A stretch of 44,774 bases of DNA from Candidatus Methanofastidiosia archaeon (GTDB lineage Archaea > Methanobacteriota_B > Thermococci > Methanofastidiosales > NM3): assembly GCA_020854925.1 (NCBI GenBank), contig JAHKLV010000093.1, positions 1 to 44,774 of the forward strand, in the 5' to 3' direction. Positions 16,028 to 44,774 of this stretch are shown here, piece after piece. The notes below the pieces were generated by a model, which was not told the DNA's origin, did no database searches, and was given only the letters and a program-made list of their open reading frames with translations. Every line of letters starts with the position of its first letter. Position 1 is the first letter of the stretch. The translations under genes and the position numbers were made by a program.

Positions 16028-16417
16028 ATGGCTTGGGAAATATTTGGTCTGGTCTTCACGGGCCTTGCGGCCGTACTCGCCGCAATAGTCGCCATTTTTG
16101 TGTTTCAGGCGCTCTTTTTATGGGTGGGCGCAAAGATTGCAGGTATCAAGGAAGCCTCCTTCGGGAAGGCATTCGTTGCTGCCGTGGGCATAACGTTGGT
16201 CACGGTGGTGGCAAACGCCGTCTTTGCCCTCGCGTCTGTCGCCACAGGCGGCCTCGCGGGGCTGGTGGTATCCATCCTCATAGCCGTGTGGGTCATCAAG
16301 TCGGTCTTCGACACGGGATGGGCACAGGCCCTCGTGGCATGGATACTCTCGATTGTGGGGTTTGTGGTCGCCATCGTCCTTGTCGGCCTCCTCGTAGCGG
16401 GTGCCGCCTTTATGTAG
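16028..16417 (+). CDS. Integral membrane protein (about 4 TM helices), hypothetical
   Basis: 129 aa, almost entirely hydrophobic segments; starts 12 nt after the HTH protein stop. Confidence 0.55.
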   Translation: MAWEIFGLVFTGLAAVLAAIVAIFVFQALFLWVGAKIAGIKEASFGKAFVAAVGITLVTVVANAVFALASVATGGLAGLVVSILIAVWVIKSVFDTGWAQALVAWILSIVGFVVAIVLVGLLVAGAAFM

Positions 16418-16473
16418 CGGCATTTCTTTTCCTCTTTTGCCTGAGCGGCGCTTTGTAAATGTCGTTTCATACA

Positions 16474-16491
16474 ACAAAAATTATTTAAATG
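16474..16491 (+). promoter_or_regulatory. Candidate BRE/TATA promoter (ACAAAAATTATTTAAATG) for the hdr operon
   Basis: Only AT-rich TATA-like element in the 150-nt gap upstream of hdrC. Confidence 0.35.
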
Positions 16492-16570
16492 CCGAAAAAG
16501 CCCGTCAGTCAATACTATTGCTTTTGCCATTGCTCTTTTGCAGTGGGACAACCACAGGCATGGTGATATC

Positions 16571-17008
16571 ATGGCTATTCGTGTATCTTCGTGCATGAAG
16601 TGCGGCACCTGCAGCGGGTCATGCCCCTCCGGGCGTGTCGTTGCCTTTCGCACCAGGGCCCTTGTCGAGGCCCGGGCGACAGGTACCATAGACTACGACG
16701 ACCCCTCACTCTGGTACTGCACCACGTGCTATACGTGCATGGAGCGCTGCCCGCGCTCCATCGACATCACAGATGAGATTCTCCATATCCGAGAGGAGGC
16801 ATACCGGCTTGGAAAGGTGCTCGAACCGCACAAGGCGGTGCTTACCTACATATGGAAGACGGGTCACGCAGTTCCCATCAACGACGCCGTCAGGGAAAAG
16901 CGCGTACGCCTCGGCCTTTCCGAGGAGCCCCCCACGACTCACCGCCACGCCGATGCGCTTGCCGTAGTCAGGGCGCTTATGGAAGAGGAGGGCGTAACCA
17001 ATGAGTGA
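16571..17008 (+). CDS. hdrC: Heterodisulfide reductase subunit C
   Basis: Two ferredoxin-type motifs CMKCGTCSGSCPSGR and CTTCYTCMERCPRSI; start at ATG 16571. Confidence 0.85.
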   Translation: MAIRVSSCMKCGTCSGSCPSGRVVAFRTRALVEARATGTIDYDDPSLWYCTTCYTCMERCPRSIDITDEILHIREEAYRLGKVLEPHKAVLTYIWKTGHAVPINDAVREKRVRLGLSEEPPTTHRHADALAVVRALMEEEGVTNE

Positions 17009-17810
17009 GCTAGCTTTCTTTTTGGGATGCATCATCCCCAACAGGATGCCTGAGATCGAAAAGGCAGCCCGCCTTTCCGCAGAACGTCTCGGCATCACCC
17101 TTTCCGACATGGGGGGCGCCTCGTGCTGCCCGGCCCCGGGTGTCATGAAGTCGTTTGACCAGACACTCTGGCTCAAGCTTGCCGCACGCAACCTGTCCAT
17201 AGCCGAGGCAATGGGGTGCGATATCGTCACGCTCTGCAACGGATGCTACGGCACGCTCAAGGATGCCTCCATGGAGCTTCGGGAGGACCCGGCGCTGTGT
17301 GCTTCCGTGTGCGAGGCCCTCCGTCCGAAGGGGTACGACCTTGCTGTGGTGCCGGACGTCTACCACTTCGTGGAGTACTTGTACCATACCTATGGTGTGG
17401 ATGCGCTTCGTGAGCGCGTAACGACGCCGCTTTCCTACAAGGTGGCCGTTCACTATGGGTGCCACCTTCTCAAGCCCACAAAGTACCGCCAAGGCGCATC
17501 CAGCGAGCGCCCCACGTTCTTCGACGAGCTTGTCGAGGTTACGGGTGCTACGAGCATCCCCTATGCCGAAAAGGCCTCGTGCTGCGGCGCGGGCGGTGGC
17601 GTGCGGTCGGGTCTTAAGGACATCTCTCTTGCCATGGCACAAAAGAAGGTAGATTCCATCAAGGGCGCCGACTGTATCGTGACCCCGTGTCCGTTCTGTC
17701 ACATGCAGCTTGAACAGGTCGCCGACATCCCCGTGCTCCATTATGTCCAGCTGCTTGCCCTTTCCCTGGGTGTGCAACCAGGGGAGATGGGACTGGAGGT
17801 GCTTCCATGA
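17001..17810 (+). CDS. hdrB: Heterodisulfide reductase subunit B (two CCG domains)
   Basis: FFLGCIIPNRMPE...GGASCCPAPG and VHYGCHLLKP...EKASCCGAGGG; 8-nt overlap with hdrC. Confidence 0.9.
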   Translation: MSELAFFLGCIIPNRMPEIEKAARLSAERLGITLSDMGGASCCPAPGVMKSFDQTLWLKLAARNLSIAEAMGCDIVTLCNGCYGTLKDASMELREDPALCASVCEALRPKGYDLAVVPDVYHFVEYLYHTYGVDALRERVTTPLSYKVAVHYGCHLLKPTKYRQGASSERPTFFDELVEVTGATSIPYAEKASCCGAGGGVRSGLKDISLAMAQKKVDSIKGADCIVTPCPFCHMQLEQVADIPVLHYVQLLALSLGVQPGEMGLEVLP

Positions 17811-20794: not shown

Positions 20795-21207
20795 CATTTG
20801 AACCAAAGATTATAGCCTTCCTATGCAACTGGTGCTCGTACGGCGCTGCCGACATGGCGGGGACCTCCCGCCTGCAGTATCCGCCAAACGTCCGCATCAT
20901 ACGCTTCATGTGCAGCGGCCGCATCGACCCGAACTTTGTCATCGAGGCGTTCCTTCGTGGCGCCGACGGGGTCATGATGACCGGTTGCCATATCGGCGAC
21001 TGCCATTATATCGACGGCAACTACAAGACGGTGCACCGGTACGAGTTCCTCAAGGACTATCTCGACACCCTCGGCATCGGCTCGGAACGCCTTACACTTG
21101 CGTGGTGCTCGGCGGCCGAGGGAGCGAAGTTTGCCCAGACGGTGGCGGACTTCACCGAGCAGATACGTCGACTTGGACCAAGCCCCTTCAAGGAGCGTGG
21201 CCAGTGA
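20791..21207 (+). CDS. mvhD: MvhD/FlpD (methyl-viologen-reducing hydrogenase delta subunit family)
   Basis: KIIAFLCNWCSYGAADMAG...IRFMCSGRIDP...GADGVMMTGCHIGDCHY; ATGA overlap with hdrA. Confidence 0.9.
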   Translation: MTFEPKIIAFLCNWCSYGAADMAGTSRLQYPPNVRIIRFMCSGRIDPNFVIEAFLRGADGVMMTGCHIGDCHYIDGNYKTVHRYEFLKDYLDTLGIGSERLTLAWCSAAEGAKFAQTVADFTEQIRRLGPSPFKERGQ

Positions 21208-22361
21208 TGGGGACCGAATACTGGGGCTGGGCAGGCGAAGCGCATCTGCGTGAGCATGGCGAGTCTGGTGGGGCGGTCTCAGGACTTCTTGCCAGCGTCC
21301 TTTCCTCCTACGACGAGGTCATCGTTATACGAAAGACCGGAACGGTGTTCGAGGCGGAGGTGCACACGCTTGATTCCCCCCAAGGCATCGCGCGCGTGCA
21401 GGGAGCGCTCCATGCGGTGAGCATAGAGCTTTCTCATTATCTGCAGCTTGGAAGGAAGACGGCCATCGTGCTCAAACCGTGTGAGGCGCGGGCCGTCATC
21501 GAAAACATCAAGCGCAACCATGTGCGTCGCGAGGATGTGCTTCTCATAGGCCTGAACTGCGGCGGCACGCTTCCGCCCGTCAAGACAAAGGAGTACTTGC
21601 GATCGCAGTTTGGCGTCTCGCCAGGTGACATTGCCAAAGAGGAGATTGCCAAGGGTAATCTCATCTTCTTCACCACCGACGGGCAGGAGCTGTCGCGTTC
21701 CATCGACGAACTTGAGGAGGCCGGCTACGGGCGGCGCGAAAGCTGCCGATACTGTGACGTGAAGATTCCCTCCATGTGCGACATCGCGTGTGGCAACTGG
21801 GGAACGCCTGCAGAAAAGCATATCACGTTTCTTGAGGTCTTTACCGATGCGGGTGCGGCGGCCCTTGAAGCCGCCGTTGACGGAGGGTATGTCTCGGTCT
21901 CAGAACCGGGGGAAAAGCTTGCTGCCGTGAGGAAAAAGATCGAGGGCATCATGGTTAAGATGGCAAAGGGATGGCAGGAAAAGATGCTTGGTCCCTTCAT
22001 GGCCATGGAGCCGAAGGAGCGCCTCGATGCCATCCACGCGGCCCTTGCCCCCTGCATCGGCTGCTACGCATGCCGCAAGGCATGCCCGGTCTGCAAGTGC
22101 GGTGACGACTGCAAGTGTTTCCAGGCCGACCCTGACGACCAGCTTCCCATATCCATGTTCCATGCGGTGCGATTCCTCCACCTTATGGAGTCCTGTGTGG
22201 GATGCGGTCAGTGCAGTGACGCATGCCCCATGGAGATACCCCTGGCGCACCTGCACCAACTCTTTGCCAAGGCCTATGAGGGCCGAACCGGCTACAAACC
22301 GGGCATGTCCTGCGGCGATATCCCGCCGCTTTCACGAGGTGATTTCCCTGAAGGTTACTAA
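21207..22361 (+). CDS. FrhB/FdhB-family flavo-iron-sulfur subunit (F420 hydrogenase/formate dehydrogenase beta-like)
   Basis: 384 aa from ATG 21207 (TGATG overlap with mvhD). It has LKPCEARAV, LIGLNCGG and CDIACGNWG motifs plus C-terminal 2x[4Fe-4S] CIGCYACRKACP / CVGCGQCSDACP. The track ORF from 20823 is an out-of-frame overlap of mvhD. Confidence 0.8.
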   Translation: MGTEYWGWAGEAHLREHGESGGAVSGLLASVLSSYDEVIVIRKTGTVFEAEVHTLDSPQGIARVQGALHAVSIELSHYLQLGRKTAIVLKPCEARAVIENIKRNHVRREDVLLIGLNCGGTLPPVKTKEYLRSQFGVSPGDIAKEEIAKGNLIFFTTDGQELSRSIDELEEAGYGRRESCRYCDVKIPSMCDIACGNWGTPAEKHITFLEVFTDAGAAALEAAVDGGYVSVSEPGEKLAAVRKKIEGIMVKMAKGWQEKMLGPFMAMEPKERLDAIHAALAPCIGCYACRKACPVCKCGDDCKCFQADPDDQLPISMFHAVRFLHLMESCVGCGQCSDACPMEIPLAHLHQLFAKAYEGRTGYKPGMSCGDIPPLSRGDFPEGY

Positions 22362-23766
22362 TTCCCACTGCCCCGGGTGCTCGCTTCTCTGCGGCGTCCA
22401 GATGATTGAGCGCGAAGGGTTGCTTGATGTCGAGTTCATGAAGGACTGCGACATAAACAGTGGCAAGTTGTGCCGGTTCGGCATCGAGCTTGCCCGCTAT
22501 TACGGCGAGCTTCAGACGTCGGCTCTTGCCGGCGGACGGGAGGTGTCCTACGAGGAAGCGGTGACGCTCGCCGCGAAGGCGCTCTCCTCGTCGCGTGGTG
22601 CCGGTGTGGCGCTATGTACGGGGGATGCCACTACGGAGGAGCTGTATGCACTCTCTCTCTTCGCCGATGCCGCCGGGCTTGCAACGACCCTTGGACTTGG
22701 CCATCACATGCATGCCGTCGGCTTGGAGGCGTTCCACAAGACCGTGACACATCCTGATGTCCTTGATCATGCACAAATGATCGTGCTCGTGGACATCGAT
22801 CCCGCCTACCAGTACCCGCTCCTCGCCAGGCGGCTTATGCTCGTGCGCGAGCAGGGCACAACCATCGTGAGCATCGGGCCGGAAAAGGAGCATCTATCCT
22901 TCTACACAGACGCCCGGTACCCCTGTCATCCATCGCGTACCGTAGATGCCCTACGGGCCTTTGTTGAGCACGCCATGCCCCATGCGCTCTACGTCGTGCC
23001 TTGTGGCATGTACGGGGACGCCGCCCTCACGGCGCAGGTGAACAACATCTGTGCCGCCACATCTTCCCGGGCGCTGTTTGTCACCGATTTCGCCAATGTG
23101 CGTGGCGGACTGGCATTGGGAATGGAATCTCTTTCCCATGGCATCGACGGGCTAGTGGCCTCCATCGAGGCCGGTGACGTCACGTCGCTTGTCCTTGTGG
23201 AAAGCCCGCTCTTTTCATCGTACCTTGATGATGCGCGCTTCTGGGCAGCATGCGAAACGCTCGATGCGCTGGTCGTGCTCCAGTCGCACCGGTGCGAGGC
23301 ATATCCCCCGAATGCCATCGTCCTGCCGCTCCCACCCTTCTATCAACGGAAAGGCACGCTCAGGAACGTATGCAATCGCCGTCTTGTCCTTTCTGGAGAG
23401 GCCGAAGGCGCGGTTGCCGTCCTGCGCGACCTTGGTGCCGCCATGGGCCATGGTCTTTCCCCCTTTGATGCGGTGGCGAAGGAGGCACGAAGCCTCTGCG
23501 ATGCGTGGTATGAGACGGTTGCGACCTTTACCCCCGTGGAGCTTCCTCCCCAGGCCGGCGTCGAGGGCCCATGCCATCGCTATGTGCCCAATCCCTACCT
23601 CGTACGCGGCATGCCGAATCCGAGAAGCAAGCGCGTGGGATTGGATCTCTATGCCGTCGCCAAGGGGAAGGAGCGCTACGTCATACGTGAGGATGTGGCC
23701 GAAGACGTTGTCTTTGCCTATGAAAAGGATCCCCGGTACACGCTTCCTCTGCAGCCGTATGAGTGA
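22339..23766 (+). CDS. Molybdopterin-oxidoreductase-family subunit, short FwdB/FdhA-like form
   Basis: N-terminal Fe4S4 motif HCPGCSLLCG...x27...CRFG. About 475 aa, shorter than FdhA and about FwdB-sized. Start assigned to in-frame GTG 22339 because no ATG precedes the Cys motif; the start is uncertain. Confidence 0.6.
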   Translation: MISLKVTNSHCPGCSLLCGVQMIEREGLLDVEFMKDCDINSGKLCRFGIELARYYGELQTSALAGGREVSYEEAVTLAAKALSSSRGAGVALCTGDATTEELYALSLFADAAGLATTLGLGHHMHAVGLEAFHKTVTHPDVLDHAQMIVLVDIDPAYQYPLLARRLMLVREQGTTIVSIGPEKEHLSFYTDARYPCHPSRTVDALRAFVEHAMPHALYVVPCGMYGDAALTAQVNNICAATSSRALFVTDFANVRGGLALGMESLSHGIDGLVASIEAGDVTSLVLVESPLFSSYLDDARFWAACETLDALVVLQSHRCEAYPPNAIVLPLPPFYQRKGTLRNVCNRRLVLSGEAEGAVAVLRDLGAAMGHGLSPFDAVAKEARSLCDAWYETVATFTPVELPPQAGVEGPCHRYVPNPYLVRGMPNPRSKRVGLDLYAVAKGKERYVIREDVAEDVVFAYEKDPRYTLPLQPYE

Positions 23767-34697: not shown

Positions 34698-36358
34698 TGC
34701 CTACCTTGGAAATATCATGCAAAGACCTTTCACGGCTTCTCGGACGCACCGTGACCGTCGAGGAGCTCGACGACCTCATCCTGTATGCGAAGGGGGAGAT
34801 AGACGGCGTCGAGGGCGACACGGTGAAGGTGGACCAAAAGGACACGAATCGCCCGGACCTCTGGTCGACAGAGGGCATCGCCCGCCAGCTGCGCGGCATC
34901 CTGTCCCTTGAGACGGGGCTTCCCGACATCACGATAGAGGAAAGCGATGTCGAGATCTTCGTAGACCCCGCCCTAGCCGATGTCCGTCCGTACTGTGTCA
35001 ACGCCGTGGTGAAGGGCCTTGACATTGACGAGGCGTTCCTTTCCCAGATTATACAGCTTCAGGAGAAAGTGGCCCTCACGTATGGCCGCAAGCGCCGGGA
35101 GGTGGCGGTGGGCATCATCGACTACGACCGCATCGTGCCCCCCATCTACTATCGAGCAACGGGACCGGAGGAAAACGCCTTTGTCCCCCTGTCCTTTTCC
35201 GAGGCGCTCACGCCGAGCGAGATCCTCTCCCTGCACCCCAAGGGGCAGGAATATCGGCACCTTGTGGAGGGGCACGACGTCTACCCACTGCTTGTCGACT
35301 CGGAGGGCACGGTCCTTACCATGCCCCCCATCATCAACTCCGAGCACACGGGGAAAGTCACCACCGAGACGAAGAACGTGTTTGTGGATGTCACCGGTTA
35401 TGACATCGAGACACTCAAGACGGCGCTCAATGTCATCGTGTCTGCCTTTGCCGAGCGCGGGGCAACCATCTACAGCGTCACGGTCCACTACCCCGGAAGA
35501 AAGGAGCGCGTCCCCGACCTGACACCCCGGACGTTTTCCGTGAGCAAGGCATATGTACAAAAGACCCTTGGCATGGCGCTTGACGACCGCGACCTCGTGG
35601 CCCTCCTGGCCAAGATGCGTTACGACGCGTTTGTCGACGGCGACGACATCGTGGTCTCCTACGCACCCTACCGTGACGACATCATGCATGAAAACGACGT
35701 CCTTGAGGACCTGGCCATCGCATATGGGTATAACAGTATGGTGCCGGACGTACCCGACCTCTCGACAACGGGCAGGCTCCTTCCCCTTACGTCCCGTCTT
35801 CTCATCGCACGGGAGCTCATGGTGGGGCTGGGATACCAGGAAATCGTCACATTCACGCTCTCCAGCAGCGAGATGCTCTTTGAGCGCATGGGGGTCGCTC
35901 GACCGGACGATGTTGTGGAGATAGAGAATCCCGTGTCCGCATCCTGGTCGGTGCTGCGCCCCGCGCTTTTGCCTTCCCTCATGGCGTTTCTATCGAAAAA
36001 CACGCACAACGACTATCCTCAGACCGTCTTTGAGGTATCGGAGGCGGCCCGCATCGACGAGTCACAGGAAACGGGTGTCGAAAGCGCCTACCGTCTTGCC
36101 TTTGCCGCCTGCAGCGCAACGGCAACGTTCACCGAGGCGCGACAGGCACTTGACGCGTTCATGGCCAACTGCGGCATTGCCTTTGAGGTCAGGGGCATCG
36201 AGCACCCCTCCTTCTTGGAGGGAAGGGTCGGTGCCATCGTTGTCGACGGCATCGAGCGGGGAATCATCGGAGAGATACATCCCCGTGTTCTCGAGGCATG
36301 GGGCCTTGAGCATCCCGTCGCCGCCGTGGAGCTAGCGCTCGAGCGGCTCCTTGAATGA
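34697..36358 (+). CDS. pheT: Phenylalanine-tRNA ligase beta subunit (archaeal type)
   Basis: MPTLEISCKDLSRLLG..., B3/4 and B5 regions; TAATG overlap with pheS. Confidence 0.9.
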   Translation: MPTLEISCKDLSRLLGRTVTVEELDDLILYAKGEIDGVEGDTVKVDQKDTNRPDLWSTEGIARQLRGILSLETGLPDITIEESDVEIFVDPALADVRPYCVNAVVKGLDIDEAFLSQIIQLQEKVALTYGRKRREVAVGIIDYDRIVPPIYYRATGPEENAFVPLSFSEALTPSEILSLHPKGQEYRHLVEGHDVYPLLVDSEGTVLTMPPIINSEHTGKVTTETKNVFVDVTGYDIETLKTALNVIVSAFAERGATIYSVTVHYPGRKERVPDLTPRTFSVSKAYVQKTLGMALDDRDLVALLAKMRYDAFVDGDDIVVSYAPYRDDIMHENDVLEDLAIAYGYNSMVPDVPDLSTTGRLLPLTSRLLIARELMVGLGYQEIVTFTLSSSEMLFERMGVARPDDVVEIENPVSASWSVLRPALLPSLMAFLSKNTHNDYPQTVFEVSEAARIDESQETGVESAYRLAFAACSATATFTEARQALDAFMANCGIAFEVRGIEHPSFLEGRVGAIVVDGIERGIIGEIHPRVLEAWGLEHPVAAVELALERLLE

Positions 36359-37666
36359 GGAAAGCAGCATGTCAAGGGGGCCTATGTTGCCTGCCTCCTT
36401 GGCTTTTTCTGCCGTAAATCCTTGCTCTTTGGCCATCTGCTTTAAGAGGGCGTGCAGGCCGCTGCCGTACTGCATGGCCTTTTTCTTCCGTTCGCAGATT
36501 TCCATGGGCAGCCCTTCTCGTTCGGCAAGCTTGCGCAGCACTATCTTGTTCTTTGTCACGTTGATGCGCGCTAGCGTCTCTGTCGAGAGGACGACCGACG
36601 CCATACCGGGGGTGAGGTACGGCGTGGTGATGTGGCAGCCATTGGCGTGCGCTGCGAGCTGGTCGCGCTGGAGATTGGTGCGTCCGATGCGTCGGAGGTC
36701 CTCAAGCTGCATCTTCTCAAAAGCGGCGGGTGATTCCTTGTACGCTTCCTGATAGCGGTGATAGCCTCCGAAGAGCTCATCGGCCCCCTGCCCAGAAAAG
36801 ATGAGTCTTGTCTTTGCATGCTTGGATGCAAGGTAGGCGGGAAGGGCAAGCTCGAAGTCAAGGACAGAACACGACGGGCCGATGGCTTGTATGACGTCGC
36901 GGGCGATGTCGGCAACCACGTCCTCGTCGAGCTCGATGAGAGAAAGCGACGCACCCATCTCTTCCTCCATCTGGACGGCAAATGCGCAATCCTCTGCGAG
37001 GTCCGCGCCGATGGTGAGCAGGCAGACGTCGGCGTGTGAAAGGCTGAGCTTTGCCAGGAGCGCGCTGTCTATACCCCCTGAAAACATGATGGAAAAGGTC
37101 GGGGCATGCGCTGCTCTCCGCCCCAGGGCCGCGTCGAGTTCCGCGCGTATGCGGGGCAGGCTTTCATAAAAGTCGGTGCGGTGCTTGCCGAAGGAGAGCT
37201 TGGGCCGGCGGTATGTCTTCGTTACACGGCCCCGCTTGACGAGGATGGTGGAACCGTCCTCCATCTGGAGCTTTGGTGGCGCATCCTCGAATCCGCCAAG
37301 GGAAGTCGAGAAGCAAAAGGCAGGGTCCTTTTTTATGAAAAGCGGATACTTGCCGTAATAGTCACGTGAAAGGCACAGCTTCCCCTCCTCGAAGGCGGCT
37401 GCAACGTATTCCCCGTCGGCGGTGGCCGCGAGCGCGGAGAGCGCCTTGGCGGCATCTTCAACGGTCCCCTCCCGAAGGATGTCAAGCTGTTCATCCGAGT
37501 ACAGTACGCCGTAAAAGAATCCGTTGCCAAGGTAGGTGCCTTCTTTGCCAACGAGGGCCACACCGGGGTCGCGCACAAAGAGTTCGCGTTCACCACCTTC
37601 CTTCACGAGGGCCACAAGCGACTCAAGGTCCTCAAAGGAACCGAACGATCCGCACAGTCCTCCCAT
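36332..37666 (-). CDS. Asparagine synthase (AsnB)-related protein with short N-terminal domain
   Basis: PP-loop FSGGIDSALLA, SRDYYGKYPLF; the N-terminus MGGLCG places the Cys at position 5 rather than 2, so glutaminase activity is uncertain. Confidence 0.7.
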   Translation of the reverse strand: MGGLCGSFGSFEDLESLVALVKEGGERELFVRDPGVALVGKEGTYLGNGFFYGVLYSDEQLDILREGTVEDAAKALSALAATADGEYVAAAFEEGKLCLSRDYYGKYPLFIKKDPAFCFSTSLGGFEDAPPKLQMEDGSTILVKRGRVTKTYRRPKLSFGKHRTDFYESLPRIRAELDAALGRRAAHAPTFSIMFSGGIDSALLAKLSLSHADVCLLTIGADLAEDCAFAVQMEEEMGASLSLIELDEDVVADIARDVIQAIGPSCSVLDFELALPAYLASKHAKTRLIFSGQGADELFGGYHRYQEAYKESPAAFEKMQLEDLRRIGRTNLQRDQLAAHANGCHITTPYLTPGMASVVLSTETLARINVTKNKIVLRKLAEREGLPMEICERKKKAMQYGSGLHALLKQMAKEQGFTAEKAKEAGNIGPLDMLLSSFKEPLER

Positions 37667-38020: not shown

Positions 38021-38344
38021 CTATTCTTCTGCGCACTTTTCTAGCTCGATGATGACATTCTTCGGAACGGCGAGGCCTGCCTCGACCTCTACGGCCTTGA
38101 GGATGGCGCACGGGACGGGACAGGCCATGTGTTTGATGCATTCCTTGGCCTTTCCGTACACTTTTGAGGTCTCATAGCCATTGTACAGGTCTTCTGCCGC
38201 ATTGACAATGCCAATGGAGAGCTTCTTTATATGGGCGCAGTCTGAGGTAACGGAAACATAGACATGCTCGGGTGCCACCTTCTTGGCTTCGATGAAGGTT
38301 ATGAACCCGCATGGCCCGGGGTCGACCTTTGCTCGTGTGGTCAT
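38021..38344 (-). CDS. Small Cys-containing hypothetical protein (107 aa)
   Basis: Clean ORF with 6 Cys (PGPCGF, SDCAHI, KECIKHMACPVPC, KCAEE); divergent from the redox cluster across the AT-rich region. Confidence 0.55.
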   Translation of the reverse strand: MTTRAKVDPGPCGFITFIEAKKVAPEHVYVSVTSDCAHIKKLSIGIVNAAEDLYNGYETSKVYGKAKECIKHMACPVPCAILKAVEVEAGLAVPKNVIIELEKCAEE

Positions 38345-38422: not shown

Positions 38423-38485
38423 TTTCTATATAAAAATACACGTACATATGCAGTACTTATACACCTTGCCCCATATCTCCGACGA

Positions 38486-38499
38486 AAGTTTTTTATATT
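38486..38499 (+). promoter_or_regulatory. Candidate BRE/TATA (AAAGTTTTTTATATT) for the FAD-oxidase operon
   Basis: A-rich BRE plus TTTTATATT about 90 nt upstream of the TTG start; GAGGAGG SD at 38571-38577. Confidence 0.4.
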
Positions 38500-38584
38500 A
38501 CATTTTGAATGTTTGGGGCAACGGTAGTTATTCCATTATTATTTTTGATGACGCTACCGCATTAATCGAAGAGGAGGAAGAAAT

Positions 38585-40015
38585 TTGGTATCTGATCCAA
38601 AGATCTTAAAAGAACTTCAAGGGATTGTCGGCGAAGAGCACGCTACTTCTGATACGCACGTTATGTACGCGTATTCGTACGACATGTCCTTCGTCAAGAA
38701 TAGGCTGCCCGGCTATGTGGCCATGCCTAAGACTGTCGAGGAAGTCCAACAGATCATGAAGATGGCAAACCGAACAAAGACTCCCGTCATTCCGTACACC
38801 GCCGGTTCGAACATCGGCGGATTGTGTATCCCGGAAAAGGACGGAAGCATCGTCATGGACATGAAGCGGATGAACAAGATTATCCGTATCGACGAGGAGT
38901 CCCGGTTCGCCGTTGTCGAGCCCGGTGTGTCGCACGCCGAGCTTGCTGAAGAACTCTACAAGCGCGGTCTCCGCTTCGGATGGCCGGTCGGCCCACCATC
39001 CGCATCCGTCCTTTCATGTGCCATTTGTCACGGTATTGGCGGCATCACTGGCCGCTACGGTCTGAACAGCGAACAGATAACGAGCATGGAAGTAGTGCTC
39101 CCCACAGGTGAACTTACCCGTGTCGGTTCCTGCGCCATTCAGAAGGATGCTTGGCACTCGCTCCTACCCCTGCCGCTCGTCGGAGGTCTCTTTACTGGGT
39201 GGCTCGGTACTACCGGTGTCGTTACCAAGCTCGGTATCTTCACACCAGCCGTTCCACCGCACGTTGAGATTGTTACGACGGCTACGGACGACCTGCAGGA
39301 CATGTACAAGTATATGCTTGAGTTCTCCCGATACGAGGCTGCTGACGACCTTACGGCCGTGAGCTGGTGGCTTTCCCAGGTGCCTATACCGTATCCCTAC
39401 AAGGAAAAGCCGAAGGATGCTCCCGAATGGAACAGCTATGCTGTCCTGTACGCCTACACAGAGAAGGAACTTGAAGCGAAGGTCGAAATGTTCGAGCGGA
39501 CGGTCAAGAACCAGCAGAAGAACGGCAGCTCGCTCCAGGTTACCCAGTACCCTGAAGAGGCAAAGCGCGCCCGTACGGAGCTTCCGTCACAGATTGTCGG
39601 TTCCACAAAGAACTACTCCAAGCAGGCTGGTGGCGGCATTTCATGGCCGGGTACCTTTACCCCTGCAAACAAGTGGGTCCCTGTATGGGAAAAATGGAGA
39701 GAGATTTATAAAAAGAGGAATCTTTCCCCATCAGTCCGCGTGACCATGTACCGCGGAACGCACTATGGTATGCTTAGGGCCATGACCCCCATCAACAAGC
39801 AGTACCCGGACCAGGTAGAGAACTCGCGGATGGCCATTGTTGAAGCGCTGAAGGTGCTTCTCGATGAAGGAGGTATACCTTACAAGCCGCCTGTGGACTT
39901 TGCCAAGGAGATTTATTCACGTGCTGACCCAGGCTACGTTGACCTTATAAAGAAGGTTAAGGACTTCCTTGACCCGAACGAGATCATGAATCCCGGGAAG
40001 TTGTGGATTAGGTGA
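38585..40015 (+). CDS. FAD-linked oxidase/dehydrogenase, GlcD / D-lactate dehydrogenase-like
   Basis: 476 aa; FAD_binding_4 pattern (PKTVEEVQQIMKMANRTKTPVIPYTAGSNIGG..., MKRMNKIIRIDEESRFAVVEPGV); TTG start 8 nt after GAGGAGG. Confidence 0.8.
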   Translation: MVSDPKILKELQGIVGEEHATSDTHVMYAYSYDMSFVKNRLPGYVAMPKTVEEVQQIMKMANRTKTPVIPYTAGSNIGGLCIPEKDGSIVMDMKRMNKIIRIDEESRFAVVEPGVSHAELAEELYKRGLRFGWPVGPPSASVLSCAICHGIGGITGRYGLNSEQITSMEVVLPTGELTRVGSCAIQKDAWHSLLPLPLVGGLFTGWLGTTGVVTKLGIFTPAVPPHVEIVTTATDDLQDMYKYMLEFSRYEAADDLTAVSWWLSQVPIPYPYKEKPKDAPEWNSYAVLYAYTEKELEAKVEMFERTVKNQQKNGSSLQVTQYPEEAKRARTELPSQIVGSTKNYSKQAGGGISWPGTFTPANKWVPVWEKWREIYKKRNLSPSVRVTMYRGTHYGMLRAMTPINKQYPDQVENSRMAIVEALKVLLDEGGIPYKPPVDFAKEIYSRADPGYVDLIKKVKDFLDPNEIMNPGKLWIR

Positions 40016-41346
40016 TACAGATGGAATGGAACTTTAGGAACGTAGACGACGAGGGAGAACTCAACCTCAAGCACTTCTTCTGGAGGTGTACTGCGTGTGG
40101 TACCTGCCGTAGTGGTTACACGTACGGTCCGCCACCCACTTTCAGGAAAATCTGCCCACAGGGTGAGAAGTTCGGATACGAGGGATTCTTCGCTTCAAAG
40201 GGCAAGGCTGCCCTTGCCCGCTGGATGACCTCAGACCCCGTCCTCAAGAACGAGTTTGAATGGACCCCAGAGTACCTTAAGACCCTTTACACCTGTATCG
40301 GCTGTGCAGGATGCCAGAACCAGTGTCTTATCGACTTCAAGCCCCACATTATCGACACTATCGAGGCCATGAGGGCTAAGGCAGTCAATGACGGCGTCGG
40401 CCCACTTAAGGAGCACCACATCCTCATCACCTCAATGAAGAACAACGACAACCCCTACACCGGGCCTCGTTCCGTTCGTGCGAAGTGGATGAAGGGTCTC
40501 GAGGGCATCAAGGACATAAACAGCGAAAGCGCGCCTGTCCTGTACTTTGCCGGCTGCACGCCTGCATACAACGCCCCAGTGAAGAATCTTGCTCTCAAGA
40601 CCGTCAGCGTCTTCAACAAGATCGGCATCGACTACGGTTCACTCGGGAAGAAGGAACTGTGCTGCGGTTCCACCGTGCTCAGGCTTGGTGCCCGCGACGA
40701 GTTCAAGCGCATTGCTGAGAAGAACCTTGAGACCTTCAAGTACCTCCACGACGAGCGTGGTGTAGACACTATCGTCTCATCGTGTGCAGGCTGCTACCGG
40801 TCACTCCTTGAAGACTATTCGCTCTCAGAGGGATACAAGGACTACATGGACGGCATCAAGGTCATCCACACCGCCGACTTCCTGTACGACCTGTACAAGA
40901 AGGGCGAGTTCGAGCCGAAGAATGAGATCAAGATGAAGGTCACCTACCACGACCCCTGCCACCTTGGACGACATGTCAAGGAATGGATCATCGACTGGGA
41001 TGGCAAGGAGCAGTGGAAGGGTTCCTACATGGGTGTAGAGGATCACGGTACCTTCGAGTCGCCTCGTGAGCTCATCAAGGCAATCCCTGGTATCCAGTTT
41101 GAGGAGATGCGCCGCAACCAGAACAACTCGTACTGTTGCGGTTCCGGTGGCGGTGTCAAGACTGCCTTCCCCGACTGGGCTGCCGAGAACGCCGCGCTTC
41201 GCGTAGAGGAAGCAGAACAGACTGGTGCAGAAAAGATCATCACCTGCTGCCCGTTCTGCCACGCCAACCTCAACGACGGTGCCAAGGTGCGCAACTCGAC
41301 GCTTCGGACCATCGACCTTGTAGAGCTTCTTGATGAGGCTCTCTAA
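40012..41346 (+). CDS. HdrD/GlcF-like iron-sulfur protein (2x[4Fe-4S] plus two CCG domains)
   Basis: CTACGTC and CIGCAGCQNQC; CCG domains YFAGCTPAYN...ELCCGS and YHDPCHLGRH...SYCCGSGGG; start GTG 40012 or ATG 40021. Confidence 0.8.
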   Translation: MIQMEWNFRNVDDEGELNLKHFFWRCTACGTCRSGYTYGPPPTFRKICPQGEKFGYEGFFASKGKAALARWMTSDPVLKNEFEWTPEYLKTLYTCIGCAGCQNQCLIDFKPHIIDTIEAMRAKAVNDGVGPLKEHHILITSMKNNDNPYTGPRSVRAKWMKGLEGIKDINSESAPVLYFAGCTPAYNAPVKNLALKTVSVFNKIGIDYGSLGKKELCCGSTVLRLGARDEFKRIAEKNLETFKYLHDERGVDTIVSSCAGCYRSLLEDYSLSEGYKDYMDGIKVIHTADFLYDLYKKGEFEPKNEIKMKVTYHDPCHLGRHVKEWIIDWDGKEQWKGSYMGVEDHGTFESPRELIKAIPGIQFEEMRRNQNNSYCCGSGGGVKTAFPDWAAENAALRVEEAEQTGAEKIITCCPFCHANLNDGAKVRNSTLRTIDLVELLDEAL

Positions 41347-41385
41347 TCTTTTTTTCATTTTTTTCTTTTTTAGGAGGTTACACAA

Positions 41386-41724
41386 ATGGCTATACAGATA
41401 GAACCACTCAAATGCATCAACTGCGGCGCCTGCGAGCTTGGTTGCAGCTTTTACCGTGACGAGGTTTTCACCACCATGTCCGCATCCATCATGATGTACA
41501 GGGAGGAAAAGCGCAACTACTTCGGGCTCATGCTCAAGAAGGAGGAGGAAATGGTCCTCGGCAGGCCGGAGGGTGTAGAGGTCCAGAAGGACGGTGAATC
41601 GTCCGGTGAGGAGGAGGCCAACGCCTCAGCAAAGCCCATTCTCATGCGGGAGCCGTGCGACGAATGCAAGAACGCCATGTGCGTTCGTTTCTGCCCAACC
41701 GGCTGTTTGACAGAGGTGGACTAA
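41386..41724 (+). CDS. 4Fe-4S ferredoxin-domain protein with acidic insert
   Basis: CINCGACELGC and CDECKNAMCVRFCP; AGGAGG SD upstream. Confidence 0.7.
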   Translation: MAIQIEPLKCINCGACELGCSFYRDEVFTTMSASIMMYREEKRNYFGLMLKKEEEMVLGRPEGVEVQKDGESSGEEEANASAKPILMREPCDECKNAMCVRFCPTGCLTEVD

Positions 41725-42954
41725 ATGGATAACATGTACACTGAATATTATCTCGTCGTTGACCTTGCAACCGGTACGGCCGAGGAGATCGAGCTTGAGG
41801 AGGAATTCGTCCAGGAGTACGTGGGCGGAGCAAAGCTCAACATGGCCCTGTACGAGGAGCACAAGGACGGAGAACCCATCGTTCTCGGTACCGGCCTCTT
41901 CACCGGCACGCTTGTCCCCGGGTCCTGCCTTGGCGTCATCACAGCCAAGAGCCCCGTCACCGGAAAGGTTGCCCACGCCCCTTTTTCATGGGGAGCAGGC
42001 GCTGAACTCAAGCTTACCGGATACTCCTTTGTCGTCATCAAGAACGCCGCCGAGGCGCCGACGTACCTCTGGCTCCACGATGAGATTGCCGACTTCGTAG
42101 ATGCATCCGCCCTCTGGGGCAAGAACGTCTGGGACGCGGTAGACATTATCCGTGACGAGCAGGGAGAGGACAGGATCCAGGTTCTTTCCATCGGCAAGGC
42201 TGGCGAGAACAAGGTCACCACAGCCCAGATAGTGAACAACTACTGGGGAGACGGCGACCGGTTCGGATTTGGTGCCCTCTTCGGTGCCAAGAACCTGAAG
42301 GCCGTAGCCATGCGCGGCATGGGTGAGCTTGAGATCGACGACGCCGATGCATTCATCGAGAAGACCGAGGCGCTTCTCGGGGTTGTCAAGAAGCAGATTG
42401 CAGGAAAGTCCGGCTTTTCAGCACTCGACTTTGCAAATATCCCCGCAGCGCTCAAGGCAGCAGCCGAGAAGCAAATGCACCGTGTCGAGGCAGACTTCAA
42501 CAACCCCCTGCCATACAAGTTCTTCCTCAAGTACCGGGAGGACCCTACGACCATGGCTTCAACGAAGGTTGAGGAACCTGGCGTGCTCGTCTCCGACCCC
42601 ATCGGATACGCCGCCCTTGGTGCAGCTGTCGCCCCGGAGGATGCGGCAGAGGTCCTTGAGGCGTGCTTCAAGCTTGGGCTCAACCCCGTCGCTGTTGCAG
42701 GTAAGCTCACTGCCAAGGACAAGGCAGGTGCCATTGCAGAGCTCGAGAAGATGGCTGAATCGTCAAAGGCAGACGCATTTGACGCGGTCTTGAGTCCCTT
42801 CGCTCCAGCGAGCGAGCGCGCAGAAGCGGCATACATTGCCGGTATCTGCCCTGTGCTTGCCGCCGCGGCAGAGGCGCTCAACGCAGAGGCACTCGCAGAG
42901 CTTGCATCAATCGGCACTGGACTCGACTTTGATGCAGATGCTTTCAAACTGTAG
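41725..42954 (+). CDS. Aldehyde:ferredoxin oxidoreductase N-terminal-domain protein, truncated, lacking cluster ligands
   Basis: AFOR_N-like: GGAKLN...GTGLFTGTLVPGS...KSPVTG...ELKLTGYSFVVIKN...LWGKNVWD...IGKAGENKV...FGAKNLKAVAMRG. It is only 409 aa, has an Ala-rich C-half, only 3 Cys and no CxxCxxxC. Confidence 0.7.
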   Translation: MDNMYTEYYLVVDLATGTAEEIELEEEFVQEYVGGAKLNMALYEEHKDGEPIVLGTGLFTGTLVPGSCLGVITAKSPVTGKVAHAPFSWGAGAELKLTGYSFVVIKNAAEAPTYLWLHDEIADFVDASALWGKNVWDAVDIIRDEQGEDRIQVLSIGKAGENKVTTAQIVNNYWGDGDRFGFGALFGAKNLKAVAMRGMGELEIDDADAFIEKTEALLGVVKKQIAGKSGFSALDFANIPAALKAAAEKQMHRVEADFNNPLPYKFFLKYREDPTTMASTKVEEPGVLVSDPIGYAALGAAVAPEDAAEVLEACFKLGLNPVAVAGKLTAKDKAGAIAELEKMAESSKADAFDAVLSPFAPASERAEAAYIAGICPVLAAAAEALNAEALAELASIGTGLDFDADAFKL

Positions 42955-42990
42955 GAATCGTACTTTTTCGATTCCTTTTTTTTTCCTTTT
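42955..42990 (+). terminator. Hairpin (GAATCG-N8-CGATTC) followed by a T-run
   Basis: Read directly after the stop at 42954; followed by CTTTTTTTTTCCTTTTT. Confidence 0.4.
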
Positions 42991-43007
42991 TAAGGTGGAG
43001 TGGACGG

Positions 43008-44195
43008 TTGGAACGCATCACTATGGCGAAGTCTCTAAAGATAGGCATCTTTATTGGAAAGGGTGCTTCATATTCGTGGATATGGTTTGTAAAAACGTTC
43101 GATGCCCTAGATTTTAATGATATTTTCTTCTTGGACGAGAACGATGTTTTGCACGGTCAGCTTGACCATTTCGACTGCTTCATCCTCCCTGGGGGGGATC
43201 CCTTCCAGGTGGCCGAAGGTCTGGGGGAACAGGGCCTGTCCCTCGTCAGGTCGTTTGTGGAACGGGGCGGCACGTACATCGGAGTGTGTGCGGGCACGTA
43301 CCTTGCCCTGCGATTCTGCGAAGATCCCATGCCGTGGCTAAATCTGGTGGATGTTCCTATACGGAACTATGCCAGAACACCTCCTGAGGCAGTTCGCATG
43401 CAGTACAAGTACCTTGTGCCGTACCGGGATGGATTCGTCTTCCATCCGGTGCGCGGCTCGCTCGAGGTGACAACGGGGGACGAGGTCTTTAAGGCCCCGC
43501 TCTATGGAGGGCCCCCCATGGTGGCACCACCGGAGATGCGGCTGCTTGACTACAGCGGATTCGATGCAAAAACCCTCTATCTTATTGATGAACATGAGGC
43601 ACAACGGACGATGCTCGGGCATGCTGCCGGCATACGAGTGCCGGTGGGAGGGGGCAATCTCTACCTCTTTGGCCCCCATTTTGAGCATCCGCATTATCCG
43701 CGGGCAAACCAATTCCTGCACGAAATTCTCTGCACGATATCTCCTCTGGCCGACGGGCCCCCGGCTTTGCCGGTGACCCTGCTCCAAGGACCGGAACTGC
43801 GGCGGTGGGTCACCTCACTGCGGCGTGACGTATCGTCGTCCCGCGTCCTTGCAAACGGGTTGACCGACCTGCGCTGGAAAATCGGGGAAAAGGTCTGGGA
43901 GGATGAGAAGATTCTTTACTTTGTGAACGAGCTTCTCAAGCTGCTCAAGGACCTTACACGTTACGACGTGCTCCCTGTCTGCGACCCCGCGTCGCTTCGT
44001 CGGGAGGCGCAGAACATGCGTATGCATCTTGCAGAGATACGCGTCCTTTCCAAGGATGGCATGGAGACTACTCGCCAGGCCAGTGCGCTCATAGATTCCA
44101 CCAAGAAGCTCTCAAAGGGGCTGTATGAATCGTATTTTATGTTCAAACGTCAACATTGGTGGTCAAATGGAGAAAACAACAGAACTCATAGTTAA
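43008..44195 (+). CDS. Class-I glutamine-amidotransferase-fold / BPL_N-like protein with helical C-terminal domain, unknown function
   Basis: KIGIFIGKGAS...FDCFILPGGDPFQ...FVERGGTYIGVCAGTYLAL matches the BPL_N/GATase1 pattern; TTG 43008 sits 8 nt after AAGGTGGAG (ATG 43023 alternative). Confidence 0.6.
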   Translation: MERITMAKSLKIGIFIGKGASYSWIWFVKTFDALDFNDIFFLDENDVLHGQLDHFDCFILPGGDPFQVAEGLGEQGLSLVRSFVERGGTYIGVCAGTYLALRFCEDPMPWLNLVDVPIRNYARTPPEAVRMQYKYLVPYRDGFVFHPVRGSLEVTTGDEVFKAPLYGGPPMVAPPEMRLLDYSGFDAKTLYLIDEHEAQRTMLGHAAGIRVPVGGGNLYLFGPHFEHPHYPRANQFLHEILCTISPLADGPPALPVTLLQGPELRRWVTSLRRDVSSSRVLANGLTDLRWKIGEKVWEDEKILYFVNELLKLLKDLTRYDVLPVCDPASLRREAQNMRMHLAEIRVLSKDGMETTRQASALIDSTKKLSKGLYESYFMFKRQHWWSNGENNRTHS

Positions 44196-44649
44196 GGAGG
44201 GAAATGGCTTTGCGTGCATCCAATGCGGGCGATGCACGGGGTCCTGTCCTTCCGGAAGAGAATGTGGGCTTCGAACACGCCGCATCGTACACATGGCCAA
44301 GCTCGGCATGGAAGTGTACAAGTGTGACGAGCTGTGGGACTGCACGACCTGCTTTACCTGCCAGGAACGCTGTCCAAAGGAAGTGAAGATTACCGATATC
44401 ATCATCGAGCTGCGGACTCTTGCCGTCAAGAACAGCTTCTACCCTACGATGGCCGACGTGCCAAAGATAATCATCCAGAATCTGTACCGGACGGGAAATG
44501 GGCAGCCGCTCTCACCGGAGGTATCGAAACTGCGTTCAATCATCGGCCTGGACAAGGAGCCCAACGACATTGCCAAGAATAAGGCTGCCTTAGCCGACTT
44601 CCAGAAGCTCCTCGACGGGCTGCCGCTCATGCGCTGGGGTGGTATCTGA
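44167..44649 (+). CDS. hdrC: Heterodisulfide reductase subunit C, second copy
   Basis: CIQCGRCTGSCPSGR and CTTCFTCQERCPKEV; parallels the first HdrC; overlaps the preceding gene by 29 nt. Confidence 0.8.
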   Translation: MEKTTELIVKEGNGFACIQCGRCTGSCPSGRECGLRTRRIVHMAKLGMEVYKCDELWDCTTCFTCQERCPKEVKITDIIIELRTLAVKNSFYPTMADVPKIIIQNLYRTGNGQPLSPEVSKLRSIIGLDKEPNDIAKNKAALADFQKLLDGLPLMRWGGI

Positions 44650-44774
44650 TGGACTACGCCTTTTTCCCAGGATGCATCGCGAAGAACGTCTATCCCGGCA
44701 TCGAGAAGGCGACACGCATCGTCTTTGAGAAGATGAATGTCGGCCTTCACGACTACCCGTACTCGTGCTGCCCT
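44649..44774 (+). CDS. hdrB: Heterodisulfide reductase subunit B, second copy (3'-truncated by window end)
   Basis: Hand translation MDYAFFPGCIAKNVYPGIEKATRIVFEKMNVGLHDYPYSCCP, which is the first CCG domain; TGATG overlap with hdrC2. Confidence 0.75.
   Translation, partial: MDYAFFPGCIAKNVYPGIEKATRIVFEKMNVGLHDYPYSCCP

Follow-up and report, generated by a model that had tools for sequence, protein, structure and literature searches.

A ferredoxin, a truncated aldehyde:ferredoxin oxidoreductase homologue and an amidotransferase-like protein recur alongside flavoprotein/HdrD-type dehydrogenases of methanogens and sulfate reducers

Contig JAHKLV010000093.1 of a Candidatus Methanofastidiosia archaeon (assembly GCA_020854925.1), analysed here over positions 1 to 44,774 and called the window throughout, ends in an array of seven same-strand genes beginning at 38585. 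We read this array as a conserved juxtaposition of three modules and not as one seven-subunit enzyme, an interpretation that we would put at an even chance. Module A (38585–41346) pairs a flavoprotein with an HdrD-like iron–sulfur protein; module B (41386–44195) consists of a ferredoxin, a truncated homologue of aldehyde:ferredoxin oxidoreductase (AOR) that we term mini-AOR, and an amidotransferase-like protein with a BPL_N domain; module C (from 44167) opens a heterodisulfide reductase (Hdr) gene set. HdrD/GlcD pairs (PMC6421429) and clusters joining Hdr to formate dehydrogenase (Fdh) (PMC12054007) are known already. The new element is the trio of module B, which is widely conserved and is found repeatedly, in methanogens as in sulfate reducers, next to dehydrogenases of the flavoprotein/HdrD type.

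A preliminary description of the window had listed the seven genes with their domains and proposed that the combination was undescribed. An open reading frame (ORF) listing, together with profile-HMM annotation, places all seven on the plus strand at or near the positions proposed, each with its named domain, and no account of the trio or of the whole unit was found in the literature searched. The array comprises:

38585–40015 (+): flavoprotein of the VAO/PCMH superfamily ("GlcD-like") that binds flavin adenine dinucleotide (FAD), 476 aa; TTG start, GAGGAGG upstream; FAD_binding_4, E = 6.5e-30
40012–41346 (+): HdrD/GlcF-like iron–sulfur subunit, 444 aa; 2x[4Fe-4S] motifs and two CCG domains
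41347–41385 (+): T-run spacer (T7, T7, T6, within 41347–41375), then AGGAGG and the ferredoxin ATG
41386–41724 (+): 2x[4Fe-4S] ferredoxin, similar in type to the partner subunits of AOR-family enzymes, 112 aa; Fer4 families
41725–42954 (+): mini-AOR, truncated and apparently cofactor-less AOR homologue, 409 aa; AFOR_N, E = 2e-47
42953–42992 (+): 8-bp GC-rich hairpin then T9 run, terminator-like, between the mini-AOR and BPL_N genes
43008–44195 (+): BPL_N/class I glutamine-amidotransferase-like protein; BPL_N, E = 4.6e-11; C-terminal helical domain
44167–44649 (+; ORF from 44125): HdrC, 2x[4Fe-4S]; TIGR03290, E = 4.3e-40
44646–44774 (+): HdrB N-terminus, 43 codons, running off the window end; CCG, E = 5.3e-06; TIGR03288, E = 1.1e-11

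The ferredoxin, mini-AOR and amidotransferase-like trio

In the Protein Data Bank (PDB) the ferredoxin comes closest to 9mqx_E, the iron–sulfur subunit of a bifurcating tungsten AOR, with a further match to 8c0z_C, an AorA-like subunit; its identity to the Theionarchaea copy is 64%. The adjoining mini-AOR matches AFOR_N (PF02730) over residues 9–198 and is 409 residues long, as against 605–653 in true AORs. Pfam AFOR_C (~385 positions) gave no match to it even at E ≤ 10, and relatives that keep the iron–sulfur cysteines match AFOR_C only at profile positions ~52–136 and 257–312, some 140 of the 385. An AlphaFold2 model of mini-AOR (predicted local distance difference test score, pLDDT, 92) returned significant Foldseek matches to the AOR family only (AOR, FOR, WOR5, BamB and bacterial AORs), with TMq of 0.68–0.79 but TMt of ~0.45–0.55. 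As modelled, mini-AOR is a whole but truncated AOR fold; the preliminary description, which had called it an AOR N-domain protein lacking cofactor ligands, was right about the ligands and mistaken in seeing the N-domain alone.

The loss of ligands extends across both cofactor sites. In the columns of the AOR CxxCxxxC...C motif mini-AOR carries D/N/Y/C, keeping one of the four [4Fe-4S] cysteines. All four are retained in 19 of 83 members of the family (Theionarchaea, Halobacteriota, Methanomassiliicoccales and some bacteria), and the remainder have lost three or four. Columns aligned to R76, R182, D338 and D489 of PfAOR, which we take to be pterin/phosphate ligands, hold L/G/F/Y in the window protein, and none of the 83 members has the AOR residues (R/R/D/D) there, the assignments of D338 and D489 resting on a weaker alignment than those of R76 and R182. 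Judged by these residues, the family appears to lack tungstopterin altogether, and the lineage of the window protein appears to lack its own [4Fe-4S] cluster as well. Mean column identity is nevertheless 50% across two domains of life.

In the two-subunit tungsten AORs and BamBC(D) (PDB 8c0z, 9mqx, 6x1o, 4z3w), the gene of a ferredoxin-type small subunit adjoins that of an AOR-fold large subunit, as it does here, and the likeness to BamBC(D) extends to the HdrD-like protein often found beside the pair. Mini-AOR differs from the tungsten-binding large subunits in being ~200 residues shorter, in having no recognisable AFOR_C and, in this lineage, in having no iron–sulfur ligands. We do not count it among the tungstoenzymes because AFOR_C, the iron–sulfur ligands and the presumed pterin-ligand residues are all missing; the ferredoxin/mini-AOR pair seems to descend from a two-subunit AOR. 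The resemblance to BamB-BamC-BamD of class II benzoyl-CoA reductase drawn in the preliminary description extends to gene order and the AorA/BamC-type ferredoxin but not to BamB, a tungsten-containing catalytic subunit whose homologue here is without a cofactor site. The ferredoxin and HdrD-like genes of such a reductase are present; no NCBIfam Bam model matched the cluster proteins.

No description of an AOR-derived or tungsten-free AOR relic was found in the literature searched, and to our knowledge mini-AOR would be the first example of a tungstoenzyme relic retained without its cofactor. A comparable case is that of the cofactor-less molybdoenzyme relics lately reported from Hdr complexes, namely molybdopterin-oxidoreductase relics in HdrA2 clusters and FhcB (PMC12054007). 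The two cases are alike in concept, each being a cofactor-less descendant of a molybdenum or tungsten enzyme that would serve as a structural subunit of an Hdr-linked complex; the former, one of which is encoded in the window itself at 21988–23766, belong to the MopB superfamily and mini-AOR to the AOR family.

The third member of the trio is a protein of 395 residues if translated from TTG 43008, or 390 from ATG 43023. Its AlphaFold2 model (pLDDT 92) shows an N-terminal domain of class I amidotransferase fold, with HisH and GuaA-A as top Foldseek matches (TMt 0.63–0.72), and a C-terminal helical domain of ~150 residues for which Foldseek gave no structural match. The motifs GGD, GGxYxGxCAG and GPHxEHP are invariant in 18 diverse homologues, as are C89, H219 and E221 (390-residue numbering), which correspond to the nucleophile-elbow Cys and the His-x-Glu of the glutamine amidotransferase (GATase) triad; C89 aligns with the active-site nucleophile Cys of PdxT. 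To the GATase1-like assignment of the preliminary description we can thus add a Cys-His-Glu catalytic triad that is apparently intact. Fold and the PGG, GxCxG and HxE motifs are shared with HisH, PdxT and GuaA subunit A and with the BPL_N of eukaryotic biotin ligases. Unlike class I amidotransferases, the protein carries the extra helical C-terminal domain and has a ferredoxin and an AOR relic as partner genes; no known amidotransferase synthase (acceptor) domain is encoded near it. A full scan of 1.84 billion representatives yielded only 133 relatives at E ≤ 1e-30, and the family is therefore small. A glyoxalase-III/DJ-1 assignment was considered and rejected, the triad layout being the HxE of GATases and not the Cys-His of DJ-1.

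Conservation of the neighbourhood was surveyed at 80 loci from GTDB species genomes, retrieved with an alignment of 15 mini-AORs, and neighbours were identified by tblastn with the cluster proteins. The ferredoxin gene lies immediately 5′ of mini-AOR at every one of the 80 loci; the BPL_N gene adjoins at 44 of the 72 where the flank allows; a CCG protein is encoded within 10 kb at 33 of 34; and a FAD_binding_4 protein is encoded nearby at 36 of 46, in 24 cases an orthologue of the window flavoprotein at 62–69% identity; the loci are top matches to a single query, come mostly from metagenome-assembled genomes and include many related Desulfobacterota, and the counts overstate independence. Co-conservation, on which the preliminary description had staked its proposal, is borne out: ferredoxin, AOR-like and CCG genes, usually with BPL_N and flavoprotein genes, recur in Methanofastidiosa and in many Desulfobacterota. 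The trio forms a conserved, unannotated gene set in many Desulfobacterota and several archaeal lineages, and chance is a poor explanation for a set that recurs in differing orders in both archaea and bacteria.

The arrangement around the trio varies with lineage. All six Methanofastidiosa loci are collinear with the window, and linkage to hdrCBA is confined to this group. In Desulfobacterales and Desulfospira-type loci, the flavoprotein and its HdrD-like partner stand divergent from the trio across a GntR/FCD regulator, and the trio is followed by genes for a multihaem cytochrome c, a cytochrome b561, a cytochrome c/NarI-like fusion and a TmcB/HmcF-like CCG protein. These resemble the cytochrome and CCG genes of the Tmc/Hmc complexes of sulfate reducers; the archaeal window has no Tmc/Hmc-like complex and carries hdrCBA in that position. 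A second bacterial layout has six genes in the order FAD_binding_4, CCG, FAD_binding_4, ferredoxin, mini-AOR, CCG (locus L030 5239–12586; also L026, L033, L039, L040 and L075), which amounts to a GlcD/GlcF/GlcE-like set joined to ferredoxin/mini-AOR without the BPL_N gene. Theionarchaea carry the trio by itself, as an operon whose stops and starts overlap, next to ribosomal-protein genes.

Several further genes recur in these neighbourhoods. Near the Desulfobacterales loci are genes for a protein with nine transmembrane segments and no family, an MtaA-like methyltransferase, CobW or RACo, and ABC transporters. Genes related to corrinoid methyltransferases (MtaA-like URO-D, RACo/RamA-like activators, CobW) recur beside the flavoprotein pair or the ferredoxin/mini-AOR pair in both domains of life (L093 12940–15767; L095 8048–9676; L025 5789–9210). 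The nine-segment protein and an 81-residue protein with two transmembrane segments are further recurrent neighbours.

The flavoprotein and its HdrD-like partner

Besides FAD_binding_4, the flavoprotein gave a weak match to FAD-oxidase_C. Its best NCBIfam model, TIGR00387 glcD, scored 108.3 bits against a cut-off of 567.9 and is thus below the family threshold; NF008408 scored 70.5 bits against a cut-off of 897. The closest solved structures are VAO/PCMH-type enzymes, whether the search is made with the single sequence or with a profile of 12 orthologues. The best and full-length match of the profile is PchF of p-cresol methylhydroxylase (PCMH; 117 bits, positions 13–445), whereas alignment to LDHD, LctD and glycolate oxidase is confined to the FAD domain (positions ~6–220) and does not place the metal-binding His/His/Glu of the LDHD/GlcD cap. 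At ~25% identity to PCMH, family-invariant Y344 of the flavoprotein aligns with PCMH Tyr384, the covalent FAD site, and invariant Y433-K434 with Tyr473-Arg474. Set against the Tyr-Tyr-Arg phenolate triad and the covalent FAD link of PCMH and the 4-phenol-oxidising VAO enzymes, the residues aligned to Tyr384 and Tyr473 are invariant, the Arg is replaced by an invariant Lys, and Tyr95 falls in an alignment gap. PCMH differs also in its redox partner, which is a cytochrome c and not an HdrD-like protein. The "GlcD-like" label of the preliminary description is sound for the FAD_binding_4 domain and loose beyond it, PCMH being the better full-length relative, and the lactate- or glycolate-type reading attached to that label is weak on both the family score and the structural comparison. 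We conclude that the flavoprotein represents a distinct subfamily, for which "lactate/glycolate dehydrogenase" is a guess and not a finding.

The family is large and slow-evolving. Orthologues are 476–481 residues long, archaeal and Desulfobacterota members being about 65–69% identical, and more than 100 cluster representatives at ≥64% identity, nearly all of 475–497 residues, come mostly from Desulfobacterota. One of these representatives is from the cultured Desulfospira joergensenii, which makes the system testable. Recent horizontal transfer was considered for the archaeal–bacterial identity and set aside, since another Methanofastidiosum copy is just as distant (65%). The public automated call begins the flavoprotein 26 codons late (ENA contig position 6939), missing a TTG with a strong Shine-Dalgarno sequence; we favour the TTG at 38585 because of the orthologue lengths and of the GAGGAGG placed 8 bases 5′ of it. 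Annotation pipelines label parts of the trio and the flavoprotein "aldehyde:ferredoxin oxidoreductase" or "glycolate oxidase", the latter being the JGI label of flavoprotein orthologues, and metabolic reconstructions that count these genes as aldehyde or glycolate oxidation are probably wrong on account of these labels.

The start of the HdrD-like gene overlaps the flavoprotein stop by 4 nt. Its product matches CCG (PF02754, E = 1.8e-29) over two stretches and has two CxxCxxC...C motifs; with two CCG domains bearing CCG and CxxC motifs and an N-terminal 2x[4Fe-4S] region, it has the hallmarks of HdrD, GlcF and HdrB. Among NCBIfam models a TfrB-like match leads (3.3e-56), followed by LdhH, GlpC and TmcB. 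The top PDB match is 9ojn_A, a 1042-residue iron–sulfur-binding reductase, followed by HdrB, whose structures cover residues 176–423. The protein is 50–55% identical to the Desulfobacterota partner of the orthologous flavoprotein.

For Methanomethyliales, Bathyarchaeota and Archaeoglobus, heterodisulfide reduction by co-located HdrD and GlcD has been put forward (PMC6421429). The present pair is like such GlcD/HdrD (Dld-II or GlcDF-type) pairs in the order of a FAD_binding_4 subunit and then a 2x[4Fe-4S] subunit with two CCG domains, encoded by overlapping genes. It departs from them in a flavoprotein score far under the GlcD cut-off and in a cap that aligns to PCMH and not to LDHD or glycolate oxidase; unlike the proposed heterodisulfide-reducing pairs, its orthologues are also found in organisms without heterodisulfide.

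Transcription signals and the Hdr–formate dehydrogenase genes

The preliminary description had pointed to T-runs and a hairpin that might split the array; both are present and are kept in related Methanofastidiosa loci. The T-runs after the HdrD-like gene occur at the same position in all six other Methanofastidiosa loci, and this spacer looks like an archaeal terminator, possibly a leaky one. The hairpin at 42953–42992 has a folding energy of -10.7 kcal/mol (z = -5.5). Hairpins of 6–8 bp followed by a T-run were found after mini-AOR in the five other Methanofastidiosa loci that were folded, with stem sequences that differ by lineage; among the spacers concerned (L011–L016), those of L012 and L013 are near-identical. 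RNAalifold returned no pairs on the spacer alignment, in which MAFFT had mis-registered the hairpins; they appear when each spacer is folded alone. The element may be an intrinsic-terminator-like signal or one that stabilises the mRNA 3′ end. A positionally conserved hairpin with a T-run has a bacterial-looking form for an archaeon. Transcripts of up to three classes are probable, and the BPL_N gene is the part most tightly tied to hdrCBA: the HdrC start overlaps its 3′ end by 29 nt, an overlap kept in all six related Methanofastidiosa loci. Automated hdrC calls of 118 residues (ENA contig 12569; window region 44125–44204) drop the first CxxCxxCxxxCP motif.

Genes beyond the window end were read from a 100-kb ENA contig (L001) that shares 99.84% identity with the window across 13,050 nt. 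The hdrA gene that the preliminary description had proposed to look for past 44774 is there: hdrB (292 aa) is followed by hdrA (649 aa), mvhD/FlpD and genes for a 259-residue iron–sulfur protein, a 685-residue molybdopterin enzyme and a 277-residue protein without a family, and then by mobA-like and fdhD genes on the opposite strand. The molybdopterin enzyme is FdhA, scoring 827 bits to the F420-type FdhA 9t1s_L, with Cys-His at the Sec-His site; one cluster thus holds hdrC, hdrB, hdrA, mvhD and an FdhA with a Cys-His active site, the gene set of HdrABC-MvhD-FdhAB (PDB 7bkb, 9t1s; PMC12054007). It differs from that system in that a GATase-like gene precedes and overlaps hdrC and in that the protein at the FdhB position (ENA contig 16182–16961) has only 259 residues, with an iron–sulfur motif and a marginal FrhB_FdhB_C match (E = 0.008), and is not a full-length F420/FAD-binding FdhB; judging from its motifs, it may connect FdhA with HdrA while having no F420/FAD site. 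A cluster type of hdrA, hdrBC, mvhD, fdhB and Molybdop/FdhA has been described, and its Methanofastidiosales copy groups with FdhA (PMC12054007). Given these downstream genes and that precedent, the second HdrC and HdrB noted in the preliminary description are real but not unusual, being the start of a known type of formate-dependent bifurcating heterodisulfide reductase. The Methanofastidiosa genome literature searched names HdrABC/MvhADG and Ehb only.

Readings of the array and its genomic surroundings

The scheme that follows is inferred as to which products associate, which way electrons flow, what is oxidised and whether module B has a catalytic role. Module A would be a soluble two-subunit dehydrogenase whose FAD subunit oxidises a small organic substrate and passes two electrons from FAD to the 2x[4Fe-4S] and on to the two CCG-type clusters of the HdrD/GlcF-like subunit. 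Module B, an AOR-derived set of an AorA/BamC-type ferredoxin and a truncated AOR joined by an amidotransferase-like protein, would assist CCG-type dehydrogenases, with redox activity confined to the ferredoxin, mini-AOR serving as a docking or ligand-binding scaffold and the amidotransferase-like subunit performing a hydrolytic step on an amide or thioester. Module C (hdrC-hdrB-hdrA-mvhD-fdhB′-fdhA) is a formate-dependent, electron-bifurcating heterodisulfide reductase. Since the three modules are chained in Methanofastidiosa, with BPL_N overlapping hdrC, electrons from the substrate, from formate or from both may end in the heterodisulfide CoM-S-S-CoB there; in Desulfobacterales the same modules A and B would feed a membrane complex of Tmc-like cytochrome and CCG proteins. 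Methanofastidiosa are regarded as living on H2 and methylated thiols only, and a conserved flavoprotein/HdrD dehydrogenase chained to a formate–Hdr operon would suggest that these uncultured methanogens have additional electron donors.

Several observations weigh against this scheme, beginning with the relatedness of the surveyed loci. Halobacteriota and Methanomassiliicoccaceae have only the ferredoxin and a mini-AOR with all four iron–sulfur cysteines, among unrelated genes, and one Methanofastidiosum carries the flavoprotein–HdrD pair beside a RamA/RACo-like gene, with no trio; because the ferredoxin/mini-AOR pair and the flavoprotein pair each occur alone, the modules are able to work apart. 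Strictly stoichiometric co-expression is made less likely by the terminator-like elements within the array. The pterin-binding roles of the four AOR residues are presumed, and in the same alignments only the two Arg (R76 and R182) are conserved between 1aor and 8c0z. The strong conservation of many polar residues in mini-AOR is also as much to be expected of an enzyme as of a scaffold. It is possible, if tentative, that the ferredoxin, mini-AOR and amidotransferase-like protein form a new three-subunit enzyme, in which the emptied tungstopterin cavity would be re-used as a substrate- or ammonia-handling site and a Cys-His-Glu hydrolytic or amidotransfer step would be coupled to the redox chemistry of ferredoxin and of CCG clusters of the HdrD/HdrB type. 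The role of such an enzyme would be catabolic, directed at a class of compounds that methyl-reducing methanogens and marine sulfate reducers have in common; it might possibly be tied to the nearby corrinoid methyltransferase genes. An analogy to Puu, with its FAD oxidase, aldehyde oxidoreductase and GATase-type hydrolase, was attractive and is undermined by the cofactor-less AOR.

Other accounts of the array differ from the three-module reading in what they make of module A, of the trio or of their adjacency. That module A is a plain D-lactate/glycolate dehydrogenase (GlcD/Dld-II with HdrD/GlcF) driving heterodisulfide reduction, the other genes being bystanders, has in its favour that glcD is the best NCBIfam match, the "glycolate oxidase" labels on orthologues, the divergent GntR/FCD regulator of LldR/GlcC type in bacterial loci and the HdrD/GlcD proposal for other archaea (PMC6421429). 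We find it doubtful: the glcD score is far below its cut-off (108 against 568 bits), the lactate and glycolate enzymes align over the FAD domain only where PCMH aligns over positions 13–445, the neighbours are co-conserved and hence no bystanders, and orthologues of 50–69% identity in sulfate reducers that lack CoM-S-S-CoB make a family-wide heterodisulfide acceptor unlikely. The trio might also be a self-contained glutamine-dependent biosynthetic or maturation enzyme outside energy metabolism, its redox neighbours being secondary. The stand-alone operon beside ribosomal-protein genes in Theionarchaea, the setting of ferredoxin/mini-AOR among housekeeping genes in Halobacteriota and Methanomassiliicoccaceae, and the intact class I GATase motifs agree with this; we judge it unlikely, given that the flanks of the bacterial trio, nearly always CCG proteins, cytochromes, a GntR regulator and transporters or permeases, speak for catabolism or respiration, and that no acceptor domain of a known amidotransferase is present.

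The preliminary description had suggested one substrate-oxidising complex feeding HdrBC, and in its fullest form all seven products plus HdrA would make a BamBCD-like complex with a catalytic AOR-like subunit. The gene order HdrD-like/ferredoxin/AOR-like does mirror BamD/BamC/BamB, BamB is among the structural matches of mini-AOR, the ferredoxin resembles AOR partner subunits, and BPL_N overlaps hdrC in all Methanofastidiosa loci, with HdrA and MvhD following as BamE/F-like parts would. Mini-AOR, however, with one of four iron–sulfur cysteines and all four presumed pterin-ligand positions changed, cannot act as BamB; the conserved terminator-like elements split the array, and the downstream genes are a complete known Hdr–Fdh unit by themselves. 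Nor does the arrangement generalise, for hdrCBA linkage is limited to one archaeal class, a Tmc-like complex takes that place in Desulfobacterales, and the trio stands alone in Theionarchaea. A single complex of this kind is distinctly unlikely. That nothing but a shared strand links the genes is very improbable: terminator-like signals do separate three groups, and each module is found alone somewhere, but co-occurrence spans two domains of life with differing orders (divergent in bacteria, collinear in the archaeon), and genes overlap at both the flavoprotein/HdrD-like and BPL_N/hdrC junctions.

The window holds a second Hdr cluster at 16538–23766 (+), which fits the "type II HdrA-MvhD-FdhB-non-catalytic Molybdop" of PMC12054007:

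16538–17008 (+): hdrC
17001–17810 (+): hdrB
17807–20794 (+): double HdrA, 995 aa
20791–21207 (+): mvhD
20823–22361 (+): FrhB/FdhB-like protein, 512 aa
21988–23766 (+): degenerate Molybdop protein, 592 aa, weak Molybdopterin match only

Upstream of the array and divergent from the flavoprotein, a gene at 38021–38344 (-) encodes a 107-residue DUF6951 protein with several Cys. It occupies the same position in three other Methanofastidiosa loci, and a 36%-identical copy lies in a deltaproteobacterial locus (L025 7932–8252) between RACo and CobW, two genes 5′ of the ferredoxin/mini-AOR pair. Also upstream and on the opposite strand, 36332–37666 (-) encodes a 444-residue Asn_synthase/DUF7411 protein. 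A 53-residue ORF at 38448–38609 (+), in the AT-rich spacer 5′ of the flavoprotein, is annotated as a gene in public contigs and has no family match; it is probably promoter or leader sequence.

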